The notes: a model not told the origin generated them from the sequence alone. 28,150 nucleotides of DNA from Candidatus Woesearchaeota archaeon (GCA_964638995.1 CAZXCF010000002.1:1-28150); one strand, 5' to 3'. Shown: positions 3,521 through 20,629, counted from the first letter of the stretch. Numbers and translations: made by a program.

Positions 3521-4543
3521 TTAACTCAAGAATTGTTTTTCTATTTCCATTCTATCAACAGTTGGATATTCTTCAATTATGCAAACACATTTAAATCTTT
3601 TTGAGATATTTTTTGAAAAGTTTGGATGAAAAACGACTCTTTGTTTTTTTATATCCATTGCAAAAGGAATTTTTTGTTTTTTGAATTCCAGCGAGATTTT
3701 TTTTAATTGTTTTTTTGATTTTGTATAAATTGCTCCCAGAATTAAAGTTCCTTCTGAAGTTATTATATCATGTTTCGTTGCAACTTTTTTTGCACGCCTT
3801 TTTACTCTTTCTGTAAATTGGATTTTGTCTTTGAACTTGGAGCTACAGTAATGGATTCTTAATTTCTTATTTTTATTCAAAATTTTTAGGGCGGTTTTTT
3901 TACTTTCTTTTACAGAATAGTCTTTGTTTATTTTCCATTTTTGTTTTTTATAATAGTCTTCATGAAGAGTAGCATATTCTAGTTGGTTCAAATTAAAAAA
4001 ATCTACTTTGTTTTTTGCATAATCAATTAGTTTTTGTATTTGCTTTTCTTTTTTTGGTAGTGCAGGGATTTCTATTCCCGTTTCTTTGAATTTTTTTGTA
4101 ATTAGTGAAATTTTATTCCAGTTTTTTTCATTTTCAATTTCTGGATGTAGCCGAATTTCATCTAAGCCTGTTTTTTGCAATTTTAATATAATTGTTTTTG
4201 TTAAAAGTTTTGGAGAGGTATAAAGATGAATATGTAAATCTTTGCCAAATTTTTTCTTTGTTGCTTTGATTATTTTTATTGTTCTAGAAATTTTTGAGAT
4301 CGGATCTCCTCCTGTTATTCCAATGCCTTTTGAATCGCTTTGTTCAATTTCTTTTAGAATATTTTTTATGCTTGACGTTTTCAATTCATTTATATGTGTA
4401 ATATCCTTGTTCTTTTTTTCTTCTGAGAGGGGGCAGTATAGACAATTTTTGGGACAAATTCCAGTTACAAATAAAACCGATTTTTTTCCCTCAAAGCAGA
4501 GTTTGCATCCTTTTGAAAGTTTGCCAAAATGTTTTTCTACCAT
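3521..4543 (-). CDS. Uncharacterised archaeal radical SAM protein
   Basis: CPKNCLYC (CxxxCxxC), GITGGDP, LHIHLYT, GLDEIRLHP. Confidence 0.88.
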   Translation of the reverse strand: MVEKHFGKLSKGCKLCFEGKKSVLFVTGICPKNCLYCPLSEEKKNKDITHINELKTSSIKNILKEIEQSDSKGIGITGGDPISKISRTIKIIKATKKKFGKDLHIHLYTSPKLLTKTIILKLQKTGLDEIRLHPEIENEKNWNKISLITKKFKETGIEIPALPKKEKQIQKLIDYAKNKVDFFNLNQLEYATLHEDYYKKQKWKINKDYSVKESKKTALKILNKNKKLRIHYCSSKFKDKIQFTERVKRRAKKVATKHDIITSEGTLILGAIYTKSKKQLKKISLEFKKQKIPFAMDIKKQRVVFHPNFSKNISKRFKCVCIIEEYPTVDRMEIEKQFLS

Positions 4544-5915: not shown

Positions 5916-8549
5916 TTACCAATAATTCAAATCCTGATAATCAGCATAATTTTCTTTACCTTTATTAGCAATTTCTTCTGTATAAACTTTATGCATTCTT
6001 TTCAAGAATTCTTGTTTATCTTCCATTTTCATTAAATCTAAATGTCCTTGAAGTAAAATATTTAAGGCAAAAGGAGAAGGTATTTTAACATAATTAATCT
6101 CTATTTTTACTTTTTCCGAATTTATCCAATCTAAGACTTTTTTTGTTGAATTTATGTCCATTAAATCTTCTAAAACTTCCCGTTTTGCTTCTTTTAGAAT
6201 TGGAAAATCTTGGGATATTTTTTTTACAGCAGATATCAAAAAATGGCTTTTCATTTGTTGTTTTTTGACTGATTTTTTAGATCCTTTATATGAGCGTAAA
6301 ATCATTAATGCTCTTGTAGCGCAATGTCTGAATCTTCTTGTTAAGATATCTGTTTTTTCAATTGCTTGTTTTAGGATTTCCTCTAAATTTTTAGAGTTGA
6401 GTTGTTTCAATGCTTTTTCTATTTCAAGATTTTTTGAGGAAATGTAAAATCCTCTGTCTGAAATTCCAATTTCTAAATCTCTTTGTCCGTATTTTCCCAA
6501 AATAAAAGCTAGAGCTCTCGATAAAACATCGTTTACACGTCTACCATACATTGAATTGACTAAAATATACTTCTTATTATCTCGCTCATCAATGTATTTT
6601 TCAATTGTAATTGTTTCCGAATCTGGAAAGTCTGCAAAGTTATATTGCTGATAAAAATAATCGTAAATTTCTTCTGCAACTTTTTTTGTTGTATATGTAT
6701 GCTGCATAATTTTTTTCATTATTTCTGTTTTCTTTTTATTTTTTTGGAACATTTTTTTTATTATTTTTCTGAATTCTCCAATTTCTAGAGCTGATTCAAA
6801 ACTTAAGGGTAGCATTTCTGAAAACCAAGAGGGGATTGTTACTGAGCGTGTTGTTTCGGGTTTTACATACAAGTTCATTCCTCGAGTGTATCGATAAGAA
6901 TATTTACTCCCTCCTAAGACAAAAACATCTCCCTTTTTCATACGGCTCATGAATGATTCATCTACCATTCCTATTTTTTCATTTGTTCCTGCAAGTTTCA
7001 CGTCTACAAAAGATTCTTCCGGAATTGTTCCGATGTTTGTCATATAAATTATTCTTGCCATTTTACCTCTTTTTCCTACTTGATTTGTTTCCGAGTCATA
7101 CCAAATTTTTCCATAAACCCAATTTTTTTCTAAGTTATATTCTCCAGATAAATAGCTTATTACAGAATAGAAATCTTGTTTAAGTAATTCCGAATAACAA
7201 TAACTTTTTCTGATTGTTTTTAATAAATTGTTTATGTTCCACGGTTTGTTAATTGCCATCCCATAGATTTGTTGGGATAAGACATCTAGCGCATTTTTTG
7301 GGAATTGGATTTTGTCTATTTTTCCTTCTAACATCTCTTTTTGGATTGTTGAACATTCTATTAAGTCGTCTCTATCAAGAACAAGGAATCTTCCTTTTGC
7401 AGTTTCATGCAATTTGTGACCTGCTCTCCCAATTCTTTGTAATGCTCTTGAAGATGCTTTTGGACTTCCAAGAAGGATAACAAGATCAATAAAACCAATA
7501 TCAATCCCTAATTCAAGAGAAGTTGAACAGACCACAACTTTTAGTTCCCCGTTTCTTAATTTTTCTTCTATTTCAAACCGATATCCTTTACTTAGAGAAG
7601 AATGGTGTGCAGCTATATTCGAATCAGTGTAATCCGTTGGAAATTTATCTTTTAGGTGATTGACGATTCTTTCTGTAGCTGCCCTTGTATTAGTGAATAT
7701 TAAGGTTGTTTTGTGTTCTTTGATTAATTTATGTAAAATAGGGTATGTTGCAGTGTAAGGATTTGCATGCTCAATTAATTTTTTTACTGGGCTTAAAACT
7801 TGAACATCTAATTTTTTGTTTGATCTCACTTTTGCGATTTCTACTTCCCTGTTTTTATCTATTCCAACTAAGAATTTTGCAACTTCGTTTAAGGGTTCTA
7901 TTGTTGCAGAAAGGCCTATTTTTGTTGGCCAGGCTTTAGATAGATTATTTAGTCTTTCCATGCTTAAACTTAGATAGGTTCCCCTTTTATTTCCTAAAGA
8001 ATGAATCTCGTCTATAATGCAATATTTTATGTCTTTGAATGCTTCTATAAATTTTTTTGTAGTTAAAATAATTGCTAGAGACTCAGGGGTTGTAATTAAT
8101 ATATGGGGAGGGTTTTTCGCCATTTTTGTTTTTTCATAAGCAGTTGTATCTCCTGTTCTTAGTCCGACACTTATTTTTGGAAGTTCTATTCCTTTACTTT
8201 TTGCTAATTTGTTGATTTCTTCTAAAGGTTCAATTAAATTTTTATGAATGTCATTACTTAATGCTTTTAGAGGAGAGATGTAAACAGAATAGACTTTATT
8301 TTCAAGTTTTCCTTCAGTTGCGAGAATTACTAAATTGTTTAAAATAGATAAGAAAGCTGTTAAGGTTTTACCTCCTCCTGTTGGAGCTGAAATTAGGGTA
8401 TCTTTTTTTTCATGGATATTCATTACGCCGAATTTTTGTGAAGGAGAAAAATCTTTGAACTTATTGAAAAACCATTCTCGAATAAGAGGGTGCAAATTTT
8501 TCTTTATTTTTGCTGTTGTTGATTGTTTTGCTAAAGATATTTTTGTCAT
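5916..8549 (-). CDS. lhr: ATP-dependent SF2 helicase, Lhr-core type
   Basis: APTGGGKT, SPLKALSND, ITTPES, IIDEIH, GLSAT, FTNTR, HHSSL, TSSLELGID, QRIGRAGH, IPSWFSE, SPFA. Confidence 0.95.
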   Translation of the reverse strand: MTKISLAKQSTTAKIKKNLHPLIREWFFNKFKDFSPSQKFGVMNIHEKKDTLISAPTGGGKTLTAFLSILNNLVILATEGKLENKVYSVYISPLKALSNDIHKNLIEPLEEINKLAKSKGIELPKISVGLRTGDTTAYEKTKMAKNPPHILITTPESLAIILTTKKFIEAFKDIKYCIIDEIHSLGNKRGTYLSLSMERLNNLSKAWPTKIGLSATIEPLNEVAKFLVGIDKNREVEIAKVRSNKKLDVQVLSPVKKLIEHANPYTATYPILHKLIKEHKTTLIFTNTRAATERIVNHLKDKFPTDYTDSNIAAHHSSLSKGYRFEIEEKLRNGELKVVVCSTSLELGIDIGFIDLVILLGSPKASSRALQRIGRAGHKLHETAKGRFLVLDRDDLIECSTIQKEMLEGKIDKIQFPKNALDVLSQQIYGMAINKPWNINNLLKTIRKSYCYSELLKQDFYSVISYLSGEYNLEKNWVYGKIWYDSETNQVGKRGKMARIIYMTNIGTIPEESFVDVKLAGTNEKIGMVDESFMSRMKKGDVFVLGGSKYSYRYTRGMNLYVKPETTRSVTIPSWFSEMLPLSFESALEIGEFRKIIKKMFQKNKKKTEIMKKIMQHTYTTKKVAEEIYDYFYQQYNFADFPDSETITIEKYIDERDNKKYILVNSMYGRRVNDVLSRALAFILGKYGQRDLEIGISDRGFYISSKNLEIEKALKQLNSKNLEEILKQAIEKTDILTRRFRHCATRALMILRSYKGSKKSVKKQQMKSHFLISAVKKISQDFPILKEAKREVLEDLMDINSTKKVLDWINSEKVKIEINYVKIPSPFALNILLQGHLDLMKMEDKQEFLKRMHKVYTEEIANKGKENYADYQDLNYW

Positions 8550-11493: not shown

Positions 11494-11526
11494 AAATTTT
11501 TAAACTCAATCACAATTTAAAAAATA

Positions 11527-11840
11527 AAAATGGTAAAATATGTATATAAATTCACAGACTCTCATTTCACTCGGTCTAATCCGTCTTTCAGAGAAATCCG
11601 AATTAAATTAAAATTTGTAAATTCAAATATTATTTAAAATGGTAAAATATGTATATAAATTCACAAATGGAAAAAGAATCTCCTTTGAATTTGGAAATCT
11701 TTAATCCATTCGCAAATTTAAAATGGTAAAATATGTATATAAATTCACAAATGGAAAAAGAATCTCCTTTGAATTTGGAAATCTTTAATCCATTCGCAAA
11801 TTTAAAATGGTAAAATATGTATATCAATTCACAAATGGAA
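11527..11840 (+). repeat. Four copies of the 5' end of the 11807 gene: 30 bp at 11527-11556, then about 2.5 tandem 84-bp units at 11632-11840
   Basis: aaaatggtaaaatatgtatat(a/c)aattcaca recurs with ATG at 11530, 11639, 11723 and 11807. Units 11632-11715 and 11716-11799 are identical. Confidence 0.95.
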
Positions 11841-14496: not shown

Positions 14497-15609
14497 ATGG
14501 CGAAAAAATTGGTGTTTGATCCCTGGAAAGTGGAAGGAGATATAAATTATAAAAAATTGGTTAAACAATTTGGAATTTCCCCTATAAAAAATCTTCCAAC
14601 AGTATTTCAAGGAAATGTTTTATTTAGAAGAAATGTTGTTTTTGCGCATAGAGATATTGAAAGGATTTTGAATGCTGTCAAAAATAAAAAGCCTTTTGTA
14701 ATTATGACTGGTTTGATGCCCACCGGAAAATTTCATATTGGGCACATGCTCGTTGCACAGCAATTTGTTTTTTGGCAAAATCTTGGCGCTAAAATTTATA
14801 TTGCAGTTGCCGATTTAGAATCTTACAATGCTAGAGGTTTAAGTTTAGAAGAAGCTCGAAAAAATGCTTTGGAAGAGTATATTACAAATTATGTTGCTCT
14901 TGGTTTAGATTTAAAAAAAGCCGATATTTATTTTCAATCAGATAGAAGTAAAGAAGGGGAAAAGGCAAATGCATATTATAGGTTACAAAATTTGCTGTCT
15001 AAACACTCGACTTTTGCAGAATTTAAAGGAGTTTATGGCGAGATTACTCCTGGAAAAATGTTAAGTTCTTTATTACAAGCTTCTGACATGTTGCATCCTC
15101 AGTTAAAAGAGTTTGAAGGGAATTGTCCCGTTTTAGTTCCTGTTGGAATTGATCAGGATCCCCACTTAAGATTGGCAAGAGATATTTCTAAGAGAATTAA
15201 AAATCCCAAGTTTGTTCAGTTAAGTTCAACTTACCATACATTTATGCCTGGTTTAGGCGGTGGAAAAATGAGTTCATCTAATCCCAATTCTTATATCGCT
15301 TTAACAGATTCGCCTTCTGAAGTGAAGAAAAAAATTAATAAATATGCATTTTCAGGAGGGCAAAAAACTTTAGAAGAACATAAGAAAAAAGGTGGAAATC
15401 CTGATATTGATGTGAGTTTTCAATATTTGAAAATGTTTTTTGAAGAAGATGACAAAAAATTAGAAGAAATTGAGGAAAAATACAGAAAAGGTGAAATGTT
15501 AACAGGCGAGTTAAAGAAATATTGTATTGAGAAAATAAATAGTTTTTTAGAAAAACATCAGAAAAGAAGGGAAAAGGCTAAAAAGATGGTTGATAAGTTA
15601 TTCAAATGA
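14497..15609 (+). CDS. trpS: Tryptophanyl-tRNA synthetase, archaeal type
   Basis: PTGKFHIGH (HIGH), VPVGIDQDPH, GGKMSSS (KMSKS), KINKYAFSGG, GGNPDIDV. TTTAAAAA at -29..-22. Confidence 0.97.
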   Translation: MAKKLVFDPWKVEGDINYKKLVKQFGISPIKNLPTVFQGNVLFRRNVVFAHRDIERILNAVKNKKPFVIMTGLMPTGKFHIGHMLVAQQFVFWQNLGAKIYIAVADLESYNARGLSLEEARKNALEEYITNYVALGLDLKKADIYFQSDRSKEGEKANAYYRLQNLLSKHSTFAEFKGVYGEITPGKMLSSLLQASDMLHPQLKEFEGNCPVLVPVGIDQDPHLRLARDISKRIKNPKFVQLSSTYHTFMPGLGGGKMSSSNPNSYIALTDSPSEVKKKINKYAFSGGQKTLEEHKKKGGNPDIDVSFQYLKMFFEEDDKKLEEIEEKYRKGEMLTGELKKYCIEKINSFLEKHQKRREKAKKMVDKLFK

Positions 15610-15692
15610 AAACACTAAAATTTTCACCCAAGGCAAAAAGCAAGCTTTTAGTTGCTTTGCCAAACAAATGGAGGTTTTTGTCAAAACAATGA
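15606..15692 (+). other. Repeat-encoded coupled mini-ORF A, 28 aa (MKTLKFSPKAKSKLLVALPNKWRFLSKQ)
   Basis: ATG 15606 overlaps the trpS TGA; its own TGA (15690-15692) overlaps the thrS ATG 15689. 83-bp unit. Confidence 0.7.
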
Positions 15693-17389
15693 AAACACTA
15701 AATTTACATTGCGATTATATTAAATGGCAGGCTCTGAAGAAAGCTTTAAAGAGTTTGGAAGATTTGCCTGAAAAAGATCTCGAAGAAAAATATGTTAAAG
15801 ATTGTTTAGTTGTTTTGATTGCGGTTGAAAAGCTAGATTTAAATGTAAAAGAAGTTATTGAAGAATTTGTGGAAAGTATAAAGAATATCTCTAAGCAAGT
15901 TAATACAAAAAATATTGTTCTTTACCCTTATGCTCATTTATCTAAAAGATTGGGGAGTCCAGATTTGGCTCAAGAGATTTTGAAAAAATCTGAAAAGGCA
16001 CTGAAAAAAGAAAAGTTTAAAGTTTCTAGAGCTCCATTTGGATATTACAAGTCATTTGAAATAAAAGTTAAAGGGCATCCTTTGTCTGAATTATCAAGAG
16101 AGATTGTTGTTGGAGGAAATGAGGAAGAGGAAAAATTTGATCCTAAACAGTTATTAAGAGAGATTTCAAAATCAAAATTAGATTCTTCTAAATTGAAAGA
16201 TAACGATCATAGGATTCTAGGAAAGCAGATGGATTTATTTAGTTTTAATGAAGTTGCACCTGGAATGATTTTTTGGCATAATAATGGGGTAGTTGTTAGA
16301 AATGAACTGATTAAATTTATGAGGGAGTTAATGAAATCTAGAGGTTATGAAGAAGTTTTGACCCCTCAAATAATGGATAAAAAATTATGGCAAATTTCCG
16401 GACATTGGGACAAATATAAAGAAAACAATTTTTCAACCGAATATGAGGGGAGGCAGTTTTTGATTAAACCGATGAATTGTCCTGGAGGTTTACTGATTTA
16501 TAAGAATTCTCCAAAATCATATAAAGAACTTCCTTTGAAGTCAGGCGAATTCGGAATTGTTCATAGACAAGAATTATCAGGAGTTTTAGGAGGATTATTT
16601 AGAGTTATACAATTTACACAGGATGATGCCCATGTTTTTTGTACTGAAAAACAACTGGAGAAGGAAATTTCTAATATTATGGAGTTAGTAGATTATATTT
16701 ACACTAAATTTAATTTTGAATATAGCATTGAATTATCTACTCGTCCCGAAAAAAGAATAGGTTCTGACGAGATTTGGGATAAAGCAGAAAATGCTCTAAA
16801 AAAAGTTTTAGATAAGAGAAAAGTTAAGTATAAAATTAATAAAGGTGATGGAGCATTTTACGGGCCAAAGATCGATTTTCACTTGAAAGATTCTTTGAAG
16901 AGAACTTGGCAGTGTGGAACTATTCAGGTTGATTTTTCAATGCCGGAAAGATTTGAATTAGAATATACGGATAAAAACAATAAAAAGAAGCGTCCAATTA
17001 TGGTTCATAGAGCTATTTATGGCTCATTAGAAAGATTCTTGGGAATTTTATTGGAGCATACAAACGGCCGTTTACCTCCATGGTTATCTCCAATTCAAGT
17101 TAGGATTTTAAATTTTACAGATAGAAATCTTGATTATGCTGAAAAAGTGATTGAAAGATTAGGAGAAAAAATTCCGAATTTAAGGGTTGATGCAGATTTT
17201 TCTCAGACAACAGTTCAATCAAAAGTTAAAAATGCAGAGATGATGAAAATTCCTTATATTTTAGTTGTAGGAGATAAAGAGCAGGGCTCTAATTCGGTTT
17301 CTGTAAGAAAAGAAGGGAAAGTAAAAACAGAATCTGTTGACAATTTTATAACAAAACTTAAAAAAGAGATTGAAGACAGATTATCATGA
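15689..17389 (+). CDS. thrS: Threonyl-tRNA synthetase with an archaeal-type N-terminal editing domain and a bacterial-type catalytic core
   Basis: N-terminus MKTLNLHCDYI, YPYAHLS, APFGYYKSF, KGHPLSELSR. Core DHRILG, SGHWDKY, KPMNCPG, HRQELSG, FTQDDAH, GAFYGPKID, MVHRAIYGSLERF. The ORF-track extension to 15590 is repeat sequence. Confidence 0.96.
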   Translation: MKTLNLHCDYIKWQALKKALKSLEDLPEKDLEEKYVKDCLVVLIAVEKLDLNVKEVIEEFVESIKNISKQVNTKNIVLYPYAHLSKRLGSPDLAQEILKKSEKALKKEKFKVSRAPFGYYKSFEIKVKGHPLSELSREIVVGGNEEEEKFDPKQLLREISKSKLDSSKLKDNDHRILGKQMDLFSFNEVAPGMIFWHNNGVVVRNELIKFMRELMKSRGYEEVLTPQIMDKKLWQISGHWDKYKENNFSTEYEGRQFLIKPMNCPGGLLIYKNSPKSYKELPLKSGEFGIVHRQELSGVLGGLFRVIQFTQDDAHVFCTEKQLEKEISNIMELVDYIYTKFNFEYSIELSTRPEKRIGSDEIWDKAENALKKVLDKRKVKYKINKGDGAFYGPKIDFHLKDSLKRTWQCGTIQVDFSMPERFELEYTDKNNKKKRPIMVHRAIYGSLERFLGILLEHTNGRLPPWLSPIQVRILNFTDRNLDYAEKVIERLGEKIPNLRVDADFSQTTVQSKVKNAEMMKIPYILVVGDKEQGSNSVSVRKEGKVKTESVDNFITKLKKEIEDRLS

Positions 17390-17478
17390 ATTTTTCAAAA
17401 TTTCATTTTAGACAAAAAATTTCAAAGAAATTTTTAGTTGCTTTGTCAAACAAATGGAGGTTTTTGTCAAAACAATGA
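17386..17478 (+). other. Repeat-encoded coupled mini-ORF B, 30 aa (MNFSKFHFRQKISKKFLVALSNKWRFLSKQ)
   Basis: ATG 17386 overlaps the thrS TGA; its TGA (17476-17478) overlaps ATG 17475. It shares the 43-bp 3' core with A and C. Confidence 0.65.
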
Positions 17479-17561
17479 AAACACTAAAATTTTCACCGGA
17501 GGCAAAAAGCAAGCTTTTAGTTGCTTTGTCAAACAAATGGAGGTTTTTGTCAAAACAATGA
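17475..17561 (+). other. Repeat-encoded coupled mini-ORF C, 28 aa (MKTLKFSPEAKSKLLVALSNKWRFLSKQ)
   Basis: 83-bp unit differing from A at 3 positions; its TGA overlaps ATG 17558. Confidence 0.7.
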
Positions 17562-18061
17562 ACTTTCAATTTTATTTGGAAAAACTATTTGATTCGGAAG
17601 TGTTTAAAAAGTTCAAAGAAGAAAATAAAGATGCATATTTTTGTTCGGGTTTTTTTTCAATTGATAAAAAAGGAAAAGATAATAAAACAAATTTAGATTA
17701 CTATGTTCCCTCTACAAAAAAGTGGTTTAGTTTTCATTTGGATGGCGAGGTTAGTTTGAATAACTTAGAAAATTATGATGAAAGAGTCCCAGAAAAACTT
17801 TCTGATAATTTTGATTTTGATTTTAACGATGTTGAAAAAATTATTTTAGATAAAATCGAAAAAGAAAAGATAAATAAAAATATTGAAAAAATTTTGTTTT
17901 CTTTACAGAAATTAGATGGTAGAGATTATCTTGTATGCACTGTTTTTATTACAGGATTAGCTTTATTAAAAATAAATATTGCTTTAGAAAATAAAGAGAT
18001 TACAGATTTTGAAAAAAAGAGTTTTTTTGATATGTTAAAAATAATTAAAAAAGACAAATAA
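17558..18061 (+). CDS. Hypothetical protein (167 aa, MNFQFYLEKL...)
   Basis: Open frame of ordinary composition. The ORF-track extension to 17438 is repeat sequence. Confidence 0.8.
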   Translation: MNFQFYLEKLFDSEVFKKFKEENKDAYFCSGFFSIDKKGKDNKTNLDYYVPSTKKWFSFHLDGEVSLNNLENYDERVPEKLSDNFDFDFNDVEKIILDKIEKEKINKNIEKILFSLQKLDGRDYLVCTVFITGLALLKINIALENKEITDFEKKSFFDMLKIIKKDK

Positions 18062-18345
18062 ATTTTAGAGTGAGAATTTTTTTCTTGATTGAATATTTTT
18101 GCTAAAAGAGTTTTGTTTCTTAAAATATTTTTTGTTTTATTTATCGCTTTTCCAGAATTTATTTTTTTATTGTAAAAATCTTCAATTATAAAGAATACTT
18201 TCATTCCTTTTTTATTAAGATATTTTGTATTTGTTAAGTCTTCTTGAGAATATAACTTAGGAATATATTTTCTAGAAAATTTTTTGGAAAGGCCAATTTC
18301 TCTTAATCCTCTATAGATGTAACCTTCTTCTTTATTGATTTTCAT
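17926..18345 (-). CDS. Basic hypothetical protein whose 3' end overlaps the convergent gene; possibly frameshifted
   Basis: ATG 18345 has TTTTAAAA about 21-28 nt upstream. The last 136 nt run antisense to 17558..18061. Confidence 0.4.
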   Translation of the reverse strand: MKINKEEGYIYRGLREIGLSKKFSRKYIPKLYSQEDLTNTKYLNKKGMKVFFIIEDFYNKKINSGKAINKTKNILRNKTLLAKIFNQEKNSHSKIYLSFLIIFNISKKLFFSKSVISLFSKAIFIFNKANPVIKTVHTR

Positions 18346-18436
18346 ATTATTTTGTATTTTAAGTATTTTAAAAGAATTATTGTGATTTTTTTGAGGTATT
18401 CTTCTTTTATTTCTGAGTAATGAGAAATGATGAATG

Positions 18437-18621
18437 TTATTTTGGTTTTTTAGCAATAAAATTAATCATTGGTAAGAAAACAGCGTTTTCTTGAAACAAT
18501 CCATCTTTCCTTTGGCACTGAAGCAATCATCTAAAAAATCTCGATTGATGATAGTTTGGTTCAAGACTGATTAGTTTATTATGAAATATTATTTTGGTTT
18601 TTTAGCAATAAAATTAATCAT
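18437..18621 (-). repeat. Exact 33-bp duplication of the methyltransferase 3' end (18437-18469 and 18589-18621) flanking a 119-bp structured insert
   Basis: atgattaattttattgctaaaaaaccaaaataa occurs twice on the minus strand. The insert contains the perfect hairpin aagaaaac-agc-gttttctt (18474-18492). Confidence 0.93.
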
Positions 18622-19200
18622 CATTTCGGAGTTTTGAGTTTTGAATATTCTGAAACCCTCTCTTTCAAATTCTTGGTGGATTTCTTTTTCATCATACAAA
18701 TAATAATATCTTTTTCCTTTATCTGTCCATCCGATCATTAGTTCTTTTCCTTTTTTCTTTTTTCTTGAAAACCTTTTAGAATTTACATTCCATACTCCAA
18801 TGTAAGCTTTTGCCCCGGGTTTTAAAACTCTAAACATTTCTTTTATTGATTTTTCACGTTTTGATTTCCCTTTAACGCAATGTAGGGCGGAAATACATAT
18901 TAAAGCATCAAAAAAATTATTTCTGTAGGGAATATTAAAAAGTTGTCCTTGTTTTGTTTCAAGAGGAATTTTTTGCCCTTTTGCTTTTTTTTCAGCTAGG
19001 TTCAGCATTTCTTGAGAAAAATCTACTAAAAACATTTTTCCTTTAGAAATTTTCATTAAATGTCTGCCTGAACCTGATCCAAGGTCTAAAACATTTCCTT
19101 TTTGTTTTCTTAAAAATTCTTCAGTTCTTTGTGCAGGAATTTGTTTATGTTCGTGCCATTCTGAGGCAATCTTTTCCCATAGTTTTTGTTGATTTTCCAT
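18589..19200 (-). CDS. Class I SAM-dependent methyltransferase, Trm9/ALKBH8-like
   Basis: VLDLGSGSGRH, FDALICISALH, RVLKPG..YIGVW, late RYYYLY..E motif resembling Trm9 RYYHL. Divergent from elp3. Confidence 0.8.
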   Translation of the reverse strand: MENQQKLWEKIASEWHEHKQIPAQRTEEFLRKQKGNVLDLGSGSGRHLMKISKGKMFLVDFSQEMLNLAEKKAKGQKIPLETKQGQLFNIPYRNNFFDALICISALHCVKGKSKREKSIKEMFRVLKPGAKAYIGVWNVNSKRFSRKKKKGKELMIGWTDKGKRYYYLYDEKEIHQEFEREGFRIFKTQNSEMMINFIAKKPK

Positions 19201-19249: not shown

Positions 19250-20629
19250 ATGAAATCTCCAGAAAATAAAGAAATTCGTAAACCCACTAAAACAATTTCG
19301 GGAATTACTCCTGTGGCTATTATGTTACCTCCAAAAAAATGTAATCATGGGGCTTGTACCTATTGTCCAAATTTGAAAGTTCCTCAGAGTTATACCCCCA
19401 AATCTCCAGTTGTCATGAGGGCCTCTAAATTAGGTTATGATTCTTATAAGCAAGTTAAAGCTCGTTTGAAAGCATACGAAGCAATGAATCATCCCACAGA
19501 TAAAATTGAAATTATTATAATGGGGGGGACTTTTTTGGAATATTCAAATAATTTTCAGCATGAATTTATTAAAGGGATTTATGATGCTTTAAACTTTAAA
19601 AAATCTAAAAATTTAGAAAAAGCAAAGAAAATAAACGAAAATTCTAAACATAGGTGTGTCGCTTTATGTATTGAAACCCGTCCTGATAAATGTTTACAAT
19701 ACATTGAAAGAATGAGGGAGTTTGGATGTACAAGAGTTGAGCTTGGTGTTCAAATTATTGATGATAAAATTTATGAAAAAGTTTGTAGAGGACATACAAT
19801 TAAAGATGTCGTTAATGCAACAAAAGCATTGAAAGATGCAGGGTTTAAAGTAGGTTATCATATGATGCCTGGACTCCCAGGAAGTAATCCTAAATACGAT
19901 TTAAAGAAATTTAAAAAGATATTTTCTGATGAAAAATTTAAACCAGATCAATTGAAATTATATCCTTGCCAAGTTATGCCTGGAAGCGTTTTAGAAAAAG
20001 AGTATTGGAAAGGAAAATATGTCCCTTATTCAAAAGAAAAAATTGAAAAGGTTTTGATTAAAATGTTGAAATTAGTTCCAAGGTATTGTAGAGTAATGAG
20101 GGTTATGCGTGAAATTCCTCCTGAATATATTGTTGCCGGGACTAAGCATATAGATTTAAGAAAACATATTGAAGAAGAATTAAGAAAAAATAATTCTAAA
20201 ATTAATGAAATAAGATATAGGGAAATTGGATTTGCTTTAAGGGATAAGCGTGATATTAATCCGAATTTAAAATTGAAAATTACAAAATATAATGCTTCTA
20301 AAGGAAAAGAATATTTCTTAGAAATTGTTAATTCTAATGATGTTTTGTTTGGATTACTTAGATTAAGAATTTTTGGAAAGAAAAGAGAAGCGATTATTAG
20401 GGAACTCCATATTTATGGGCAGGCTTTGAAACTTGGAGAAAAAGGGAAAATTTCTCAGCATAAGGGTTTGGGTAAATGGTTAATGAACAAGGCAGGAGAA
20501 ATTGCTAAAAAACAAGATTGTAAGGAGATAAAGGTTATTTCAGGTGTTGGTGTAAGAGAGTATTATAGAAAATTGAATTATTCTTTGGAAGAAGGGAAAG
20601 GAGAGTATATGATTAAATGTTTGAAGTGA
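19250..20629 (+). CDS. elp3: Elp3 tRNA uridine(34) acetyltransferase (radical SAM + GNAT)
   Basis: KPTKTISGITPVA, CNHGACTYC, IMGGTF, ETRPD, TRVELGVQ, PDQLKLYP, RVMREIP, IRELHIYG, QHKGLG, ISGVGVREYYRKL. Confidence 0.96.
   Translation: MKSPENKEIRKPTKTISGITPVAIMLPPKKCNHGACTYCPNLKVPQSYTPKSPVVMRASKLGYDSYKQVKARLKAYEAMNHPTDKIEIIIMGGTFLEYSNNFQHEFIKGIYDALNFKKSKNLEKAKKINENSKHRCVALCIETRPDKCLQYIERMREFGCTRVELGVQIIDDKIYEKVCRGHTIKDVVNATKALKDAGFKVGYHMMPGLPGSNPKYDLKKFKKIFSDEKFKPDQLKLYPCQVMPGSVLEKEYWKGKYVPYSKEKIEKVLIKMLKLVPRYCRVMRVMREIPPEYIVAGTKHIDLRKHIEEELRKNNSKINEIRYREIGFALRDKRDINPNLKLKITKYNASKGKEYFLEIVNSNDVLFGLLRLRIFGKKREAIIRELHIYGQALKLGEKGKISQHKGLGKWLMNKAGEIAKKQDCKEIKVISGVGVREYYRKLNYSLEEGKGEYMIKCLK

Follow-up and report, generated by a model that had tools for sequence, protein, structure and literature searches.

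Organization of the trpS-thrS locus

The DNA analyzed here (the window) is a stretch of 28,150 nucleotides from a Candidatus Woesearchaeota archaeon (GCA_964638995.1, CAZXCF010000002.1:1-28150), whose genome is a 585-kb metagenome-assembled genome (MAG) of 72 contigs with 74% completeness and 31% GC. In this window, three copies of a short repeat, referred to as units A, B, and C, are interposed between the genes for tryptophanyl-tRNA synthetase (trpS), threonyl-tRNA synthetase (thrS), and a conserved protein of 167 aa. Each unit contains a mini-open reading frame (mini-ORF) whose ends overlap the neighboring stop and start codons. The features of the locus are as follows.

14497-15609, plus strand: trpS, tryptophanyl-tRNA synthetase (Pfam tRNA-synt_1b, E 7e-47; sequence)
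15605-15619, plus strand: left member of a 15-nt direct duplication, AATGAAAACACTAAA, whose right member (15688-15702) is the genuine start of thrS
15606-15692, plus strand: unit A, A-type, 28-codon mini-ORF, ATGA at both ends, period 83 nt (nhmmer E 1.6e-16)
15632-15661 and 17501-17530, plus strand: imperfect hairpin of A-type units only (contained in the minimum free energy fold)
15646-15692, plus strand: common 47-nt core with GGAGG at 15670-15674, 14 nt before the thrS ATG
15689-17389, plus strand: thrS, archaeal threonyl-tRNA synthetase (ThrRS) with N-terminal editing domain (Pfam PF08915 from residue 1, PF00587, PF03129)
17386-17478, plus strand: unit B, B-type, 30-codon mini-ORF, period 89 nt (sequence)
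17475-17561, plus strand: unit C, A-type, 28-codon mini-ORF, period 83 nt, 97% identical to unit A
17558-18061, plus strand: conserved 167-aa gene without Pfam match (tblastn synteny)

All five junctions of the chain trpS-A-thrS-B-C-167-aa gene were ATGA, beginning with the TGA stop codon of trpS (15607-15609), which overlaps the ATG of unit A. The lengths (83, 89, and 83 nt) and codon numbers (28, 30, and 28) given for the units in a preliminary description of the window were confirmed. The common core, ending in ATGA, had three matches with one C/T difference, where none was expected by chance, and a GGAGG motif, corresponding to a Shine-Dalgarno (SD) sequence, was located 14 nt ahead of the following ATG in every copy (15670-15674, 17456-17460, and 17539-17543), as had been described. 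The hairpin proposed for units A and C was also present at the two sites listed above, but its stability was not significant (z-score -0.7); it was missing from unit B and from subfamilies 2 and 3 described below, and it was not conserved in the family.

The thrS start at 15689 was considered correct because the archaeal editing-domain profile aligns from residue 1 and relatives begin with MK(T/I)L..LH. The start of unit A matched that of thrS at 14 of 14 positions (BLAST), and unit C bore the same thrS-derived first 14 nt despite not adjoining the thrS start. The 5' half of unit B was homologous to that of another unit of the genome (E', on contig C1) and showed a weak likeness to the start of the downstream gene. 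Its interpretation as a decayed duplicate of that gene start was weakly supported, with 83 of 2000 shuffles scoring equally, and was not retained.

Units at other loci of the genome

A profile search (nhmmer) identified exactly nine units at six loci of the genome, and the next match had an E value of >0.2. The units were 61-89 nt in length and all lay on the coding strand, and three pairs (B-C, F-G, and E'-D) were arranged in tandem. Five loci were junctions of co-directional genes (trpS|thrS, thrS|next gene, uL4|uL23, uL22|uS3, and rrp41|rrp42), the locus on contig C1 being the exception. An exact 26-mer of the core had no matches in the genome contig and metagenome contig collections.

Units A, B, and C of the window and units E' and D, in tandem on contig C1, constituted subfamily 1. 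Subfamily 2 comprised unit I (uL4|uL23), units F and G in tandem (uL22|uS3), and unit H (rrp41|rrp42, RNase PH exosome genes), the flanking genes being identified via Pfam. Members of subfamily 2 had a 61-nt period, a 19-codon mini-ORF, and a 5' ATGA on the upstream stop. At their 3' end, the arrangement TAA-A-ATG placed the stop 1 nt ahead of the downstream start, and the SD (GGAGG, or AGAGG in unit I) was located 10 nt before the downstream ATG. In seven of the nine units, the start codon was thus intact, the frame open, and GGAGG or AGAGG present, with the stop overlapping the next ATG or lying 1 nt ahead of it. The relay design outlined in the preliminary description therefore recurs at other coupled junctions of this genome, as it does in the wide family of related archaea described below.

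The remaining two units, D and E', were situated in a spacer adjoining a 100-N scaffold gap, ahead of a gene with its own TATA-like box. Unit D had a 1-nt deletion (period 82) and a TAG after 14 codons, unit E' had no ATG and an in-frame TAG, and both carried GGAAG instead of GGAGG. As the units on contig C1 were decayed and those at coupled sites were intact, the relay features are kept at coupled genes and decay elsewhere. In support of the interpretation in the preliminary description, the uncoupled copies on C1 had lost frame, start, and GGAGG.

A second small repeat (repeat X, ~55 nt) was observed in three copies, the third diverged, on the minus strand of contig C1 (~20190-20520). It begins with ATG and encodes a 16-codon ORF, and the 100-N scaffold gap lies directly upstream. 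Repeat X flanks the E'-D pair as a perfect 55-nt direct repeat (period 208).

Empty sites and recent copying

The gene order trpS-thrS-167-aa gene, followed by a methyltransferase gene on the opposite strand, was conserved in relatives, the 167-aa gene lying directly 3' of thrS in many of them (tblastn synteny). Empty-site alleles, which had been anticipated, were found at both junctions. In genome G006, the TAA of trpS and the ATG of thrS were separated by 1 nt; in G020, G002, and G023, thrS and the next gene shared a direct ATGA. Three other relatives had spacers of 0-4 nt at the thrS|next gene junction, and no SD was present at any empty junction examined in relatives. Because both junctions occur without a unit in relatives, the copies in the window are considered recent.

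Units A, C, and D open with the sequence ATGAAAACACTAAA, matching the initial 14 nt of thrS without a difference. In two other genera, MKTLNLH is the native ThrRS N-terminus; thus, a 15-nt duplication of the thrS start flanks unit A, and the presence of the same 14 nt in C and D indicates that a thrS-derived piece was carried to other loci. The 5' halves of B and E' were homologous (6 of 2000 shuffles scored as well), and both of these tandem loci were ordered B-type then A-type. No terminal inverted repeats were detected in the seven units tested, all of which scored no better than shuffles. Given this absence and the variable duplication length, the copying resembles recombination or template switching rather than classical transposition, and it may have occurred at (A)ATGA(A) microhomology. 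New start codons of this genome (trpS|thrS, thrS|next gene, and the C1 spacer) have recently acquired a copy of the cassette, with duplication of 15-55 nt of the target start.

A wide family in DPANN archaea

A degenerate pattern covering subfamilies 1 and 2 had no match in 400 other genomes of the same GTDB family. Inspection of orthologous junctions revealed a diverged third form in G005, the closest relative (uL4|uL23), and in G014 (uL22|uS3); other relatives were empty at the uL4|uL23 and uL22|uS3 junctions inspected. A degenerate pattern for this third form was then searched in 185,579 species genomes, one per prokaryotic species, and gave 46 matches: ~37 in DPANN MAGs, eight scattered in bacteria, and one in a contig referred to as L080. 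The archaeal matches, 2-4 in each MAG, came from MAGs labeled Candidatus Pacearchaeota, Woesearchaeota, or Nanoarchaeota; the diverged form was present in ~25 MAGs with these labels. A mini-ORF, mostly of exactly 19 codons, was present in 36 of the 37 archaeal matches and in none of the eight bacterial matches, which looked like chance occurrences.

L080 (DAIQOR010000001.1) is a 295-kb contig titled 'bacterium isolate CTOTU11692', in which the uL22|uS3 unit and the uS3 start are as in contig C15 of G014. The 'bacterium' title is probably a taxonomic mislabel.

The 19-codon consensus was MK(V/A)N(Q/I)(R/K)F(S/P)FIQKxx(G/R)GYFE, and the GGAGG of this third form (subfamily 3) was located 9 nt before the ATG. 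Three stop geometries were found in the wide family, namely the TGA of an ATGA on the downstream start, TAATG, and TGA directly before ATG. The stop type tracked the +4 base of the downstream gene, since genes starting with ATGA used ATGA and those starting with ATGG used TAATG. In a set selected for intact ORFs, length variants were mostly whole codons (+3, +6, +9, +18, +27, and -6). Searches independent of the ORF, using a hidden Markov model and a covariance model (R1), identified further units, including tandem pairs, one unit without SD, and a few decayed copies. R1 matched 8 of 36 genomes of the same family and none of 24 genomes from other families of the order; it missed the window's own units, which are too diverged.

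These units are nevertheless linked to the wide family. Intermediate forms shared CATTCTCC with subfamily 2, subfamily 2 and E' showed significant similarity to the wide family (0-2 of 200 shuffles scored as high), and subfamily 1 was connected to it via subfamily 2 and E'. The units of the window (subfamily 1) form a lineage-specific branch of this wide family, whose sequence and position are conserved throughout the organism's GTDB family.

The same downstream genes recurred across genomes, including uL23, uS3, apgM, pop5, uL4, uL14, uL18-like genes, eS4, and others. Units preceding uS3 shared derived traits (ME..,.YIKK., and a TAATG junction), and two of four pop5 units shared a 6-codon insert. 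In a tree of 42 units (60 nt), clustering by downstream gene was weak (21 changes versus 23.7 in shuffles; 19 of 300 as low), and there was no clustering by genome; this tree is too weak to settle between vertical inheritance and repeated insertion.

Tandem pairs consisting of a diverged first unit and a canonical second unit of the wide family were observed in other MAGs (L099, ~6520-6650; L070/L110, ~3870-3990), mirroring B-C.

No description of a relay family in DPANN archaea was found in full-text literature searches. In a search of Rfam 15 at the gathering threshold, the window matched tRNA-Glu only, and five unit-bearing loci had no match. The family, which is conserved in DPANN archaea, is previously undescribed. 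It is invisible to gene callers because its ORFs are shorter than 30 codons.

Sequence conservation and RNA structure

For 28 units of the 19-codon type, the ratio of nonsynonymous to synonymous polymorphism (pN/pS) in the mini-ORF frame was 0.87 (codons 2-12), and variability at third codon positions did not exceed that at the first and second. Codon 9 had C as its third base in 21 of 22 units, although the encoded amino acid varied (F, I, Y, C, L, and H), and the two codons (6 nt) before the SD were hypervariable. In addition, the frame relative to GGAGG differed between subfamilies (GGA-GGT versus CGG-AGG). The pN/pS value, the absence of free third positions, and the differing GGAGG frame together indicate that peptide identity is not what is conserved. 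What is conserved is the nucleotide sequence, together with the ATG, the open frame, and a stop within 1 nt of the next start codon. The peptide LVAL(P/S)NKWRFLSKQ, which the preliminary description gave as encoded by the core, is not supported as a conserved product.

RNA folds of single units were not more stable than shuffles (z-scores -0.8 to +0.8), and a consensus fold of the nine units of this genome gave a 5-bp stem of -0.4 kcal/mol with no compensatory changes. A weak consensus helix was found between CAU.CAAAA and UUUUG.AUG with the SD in the loop; every cell was paired, and 0 of 500 shuffles reached its value. One pair of this helix covaried, being C-G in 19 units and A-U in three, and three unbiased units had C/A at this pair. 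The helix may represent a start-masking hairpin. An alternative helix (UUCAUUCA/UGAAUGAA) scored no better than shuffles and was rejected.

Comparison with known systems

The preliminary description knew of no named element with this design, a statement that has to be withdrawn in view of MIRUs (mycobacterial interspersed repetitive units). According to the passages of two articles in which the work of Supply et al. (1997) is summarized, MIRUs are 40-100 bp repeats within mycobacterial operons with an internal ORF overlapping the flanking genes; their insertion seems to occur at start codons with a coupling of -4 nt, which limits the impact on expression (PMC12548453; PMC3184786). In both systems, units are located between operon genes in the direction of transcription, the ends of the internal ORF overlap the flanking stop and start codons (-4 nt, ATGA), and filled sites have short direct repeats where relatives have empty sites. 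Both are dispersed and often in tandem, MIRUs at many loci and the units described here as nine copies at six loci. By analogy, the archaeal family fits the functional definition of MIRUs on every feature testable here, as an analogue and not as a member.

There are also differences from MIRUs. The host is an archaeon with 31% GC, in contrast to GC-rich actinobacteria; the likeness is one of design, and sequence homology is not expected. The archaeal units hold a strong SD inside the mini-ORF, and both their sequence and their placement ahead of uL23, uS3, uL4, uL14, uL18, apgM, and pop5 are conserved from genus to genus. Upstream of single genes, such as apgM, units also form a first cistron that is probably leaderless. 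Target duplications were 15-55 nt, compared with 4 nt for MIRUs, and copy numbers were 1-9 per genome, compared with 40-50.

The units also resemble synthetic bicistronic designs, in which a short leader cistron with an embedded second SD and a stop overlapping the start (ATGA or TAATG) delivers the ribosome and removes inhibitory structure (PMC12548453; PMC6302717; PMC5995908). Ribosome-'delivering' short ORFs have been exploited in such designs (PMC12548453). These are engineered single-copy devices with an upstream SD1, whereas the archaeal units are natural and multi-copy and start by overlapping an upstream stop or at the transcript 5' end. Natural overlapping gene pairs likewise have ATGA, TAATG, or very short spacers, with an intragenic SD before the restart codon (PMC6728339; PMC10666635); those pairs are two ordinary genes, whereas here a dedicated cistron of 19-30 codons is interposed and two consecutive reinitiations would be needed.

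Miniature inverted-repeat transposable elements (MITEs), repetitive extragenic palindromic (REP) elements, and Rickettsia palindromic elements (RPEs) are comparable as small non-autonomous repeats that persist by harmlessness. RPEs stay in frame inside genes, whereas the relay units lie between genes. Unlike these elements, the units had no terminal inverted repeats, no significant palindromic fold, and no target duplication of fixed length. Membership in the MITEs was rejected on the basis of the shuffle-like terminal repeat scores and the duplications of 15 and 55 nt, and that in leader-peptide attenuators because a single TGG was present, in subfamily 1 only, without a run of Thr codons.

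Proposed mechanism and alternative explanations

We propose, with a probability of roughly 0.6, that the units represent copies of a short relay cassette lying between cistrons and are the archaeal equivalent of the MIRUs of mycobacteria. Each unit would be a mini-cistron whose ATG overlaps the stop of the upstream gene and whose stop overlaps the downstream ATG, or precedes it by 1 nt in the sister subfamily, and whose coding sequence holds an SD (GGAGG) 10-14 nt before that ATG. A ribosome finishing the upstream gene would re-initiate on the mini-ORF, translate through the SD region, and melt local structure; it would then terminate on the next start codon, be held there by the SD, and re-initiate. 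As the ribosome is handed on via the mini-ORF, translational coupling would outlast the insertion, and the downstream gene would gain an SD lacking at the ancestral direct overlap. Termination-reinitiation at ATGA and at very short distances has been shown experimentally in an archaeon and in Escherichia coli, and it is frequently, though not invariably, enhanced by the SD (PMC6728339; PMC10666635). The comparative evidence substantially strengthens the relay interpretation, with recurrence of the design at coupled junctions, its decay on contig C1, and the wide family all being consistent with it.

Several observations weigh against this proposal. We infer both the translation of the mini-ORFs and the ribosome relay from sequence. 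The ORFs of units A, B, and C were individually open in 5-19% of shuffles, so that the statistical weight lies in the family and not in this locus; unit copies are related, and counts therefore overstate independence. Some members without GGAGG keep the ORF (G025). The duplications of 15 and 55 nt, without terminal inverted repeats, match a classical transposase poorly. Moreover, the strong nucleotide-level conservation exceeds the needs of a simple relay and hints at an additional RNA-level role.

The last point is the basis of the most serious alternative, in which the unit is mainly a cis-acting RNA element (an operator, a processing site, or a start-codon-masking hairpin) for a regulon of the translation machinery, and the open frame is a by-product of lying between coupled genes. 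We consider this rather unlikely, even though the pN/pS value, the C of codon 9, the hypervariable 6 nt before the SD, and the fully paired consensus helix are in accordance with it. Further, the C-G to A-U change in this helix accompanies the change from GAATGA to TAATG, UCUCC/GGAGG of subfamily 2 is UCUCU/AGAGG in unit I, and units precede the same ribosomal-protein genes in several genera. On the other hand, the AU-rich helices have very low stability (-1.35 and -0.44 kcal/mol), single-unit folds were not better than shuffles, the covarying pair was C/A in three unbiased matches, the search pattern itself fixed most 3' columns, and no Rfam family matched. An RNA element alone also fails to explain the retained ATG, frame, and junction stop in three stop/start geometries. 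The same nucleotide-level conservation argues against a real multi-copy small protein, such as a ribosome-associated micropeptide, with the peptide as its functional product. Units near ribosomal-protein genes and the conserved 19-aa length and consensus of the wide family would suit such a protein; pN/pS of ~0.9, third positions that are not freer, and frame-shifted variants make it highly improbable, as do the C-terminal peptides of subfamilies 1 and 2, which are unrelated because their frame relative to GGAGG differs. The unit peptides were absent from a collection of 15 billion proteins, as expected for proteins of <30 aa. Slightly less credible still is a leader-peptide attenuator or sensor (a Trp codon or an arrest peptide) tuning aminoacyl-tRNA synthetase expression, an idea from the preliminary description prompted by the single Trp codon in each core. 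Units do flank trpS and thrS, each subfamily-1 core has one TGG, and units of the wide family repeatedly show the N-terminal consensus MK(V/A)NQRFSFIQK. However, the TGG merely arises where AAATGGAGG overlaps the SD, corresponds to CGG in subfamily 2, and is absent from subfamily 3, while most units precede ribosomal-protein, exosome, RNase P, and glycolytic genes unrelated to aminoacyl-tRNA synthetases. The peptide is not under purifying selection, it has no run of Thr codons, and the units offer no terminator/antiterminator alternative. Archaea are not known to possess the attenuation machinery of bacteria.

We assign an equally small chance to an artefact of the assembly or a local duplication without meaning. 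It would be conceivable for a low-coverage MAG of 72 contigs, in which the C1 copies abut a 100-N gap. The assembly was checked against independently built k=31 unitigs (Logan contigs) from one public run (95% of sampled words, ~7x depth). They reproduced every unique-to-repeat junction, contained no empty-site form and no joint skipping a unit, and also included the variant belonging to the C1 copy. The identical 48-nt cores of B and C were not phased by these unitigs; as the latter are built from 31-mers, the tandem order B-C rests on the original assembly, a further point that counts against the relay proposal. Beyond the window, the same architecture was found at four other loci of the genome and in ~25 independently assembled genomes. 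A CRISPR-like array of a 47-nt repeat and a 36-nt spacer was ruled out, since the 'spacers' are identical at different loci, and so was an internal promoter, since the TAATTTTATAAA box of the lineage, which precedes thrS in relatives, had no counterpart in the unit.

Regarding the nature of the relay cassette, the preliminary description had envisaged a selfish micro-element that stays harmless by handing on ribosomes. A purely selfish reading is too narrow, given the conservation of nucleotides and position. Positional conservation across genera, together with nucleotide conservation, points to a cis function or at least a strong constraint on the sequence. Whether the cassette is beneficial or merely tolerated is, in either case, something that we infer. 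More tentatively, the units may represent a domesticated MIRU-like element, that is, a nucleotide-conserved relay module of Pacearchaeota-type DPANN archaea that has a host function and copies itself onto new start codons. Such a module would consist of a 19-codon mini-cistron with the SD in a weak start-codon-masking hairpin before many ribosomal-protein genes, apgM, pop5, and others. Its roles might include, for example, setting stoichiometry along the giant ribosomal-protein operon or turning leaderless initiation into SD-assisted reinitiation.

If the relay proposal is correct, the family would represent the first MIRU counterpart in archaea as well as a natural multi-copy coupler of the bicistronic-design type. 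Conserved in position and sequence in many uncultured DPANN genomes and absent from Rfam, it would mark an unannotated layer of translational organization in some of the smallest known genomes. The units offer a test bed for archaeal termination-reinitiation, with three natural stop/start geometries and natural frame-broken controls.

Consequences for annotation and additional observations

Two of the three frames were open across the units, the thrS frame back to 15590 and that of the next gene to 17438. Annotation pipelines could therefore wrongly lengthen both genes, and annotators should not extend thrS, uS3, uL23, and others through the open upstream frames. An additional in-frame ATG without a preceding SD was present exactly 21 nt before the ATG of the downstream gene (15668-15691 and 17537-17560 in the window, and 7565-7588 on contig C17 of the same genome). 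The intervening sequence reads MEVFVKT-M in subfamily 1 and MNGGFCK-M in subfamily 2, and the 21-nt spacing of the two ATGs is kept although the position of both with respect to GGAGG is shifted by 4 nt between the subfamilies.

Elsewhere in the window, the start of the gene at 11807 (ATGGTAAAATATGTATAT.AATTCACA) was present four times within 11523-11840, three of them within a tandem array of 84-nt repeats (2.5 copies, 99% identical). A mini-ORF of at least 21 codons begins at each extra copy, so that a duplicated gene start with an upstream mini-ORF is again observed; the sequence of this array is unrelated to that of the relay units. Downstream of the 167-aa gene, a region of ~0.5 kb (18062-18588) was considered lineage-specific because the methyltransferase gene directly abuts the 167-aa gene in relatives. 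One ORF of 176 codons in this region overlaps the 167-aa gene and has no Pfam match. The methyltransferase gene (minus strand, 18589-19200) has its final 33-37 nt duplicated 152 nt downstream (18433-18469 and 18585-18621).

Contig C68 of the same genome carried a CRISPR array with ~26 GC-rich 33-nt repeats (GTCGCTCCCTTCGCGGGGAGCGTGGATTGAAAC) and may be mis-binned in this MAG of 31% GC. In addition, ThrRS matched in two pieces, the editing domain (residues 1-150) and the catalytic body, in G001, G009, G022, G037, G041, G047, G048, G050, and G052. This pattern of matches suggests that the editing domain is split or separately encoded in several relatives, whereas the thrS of the window is fused.

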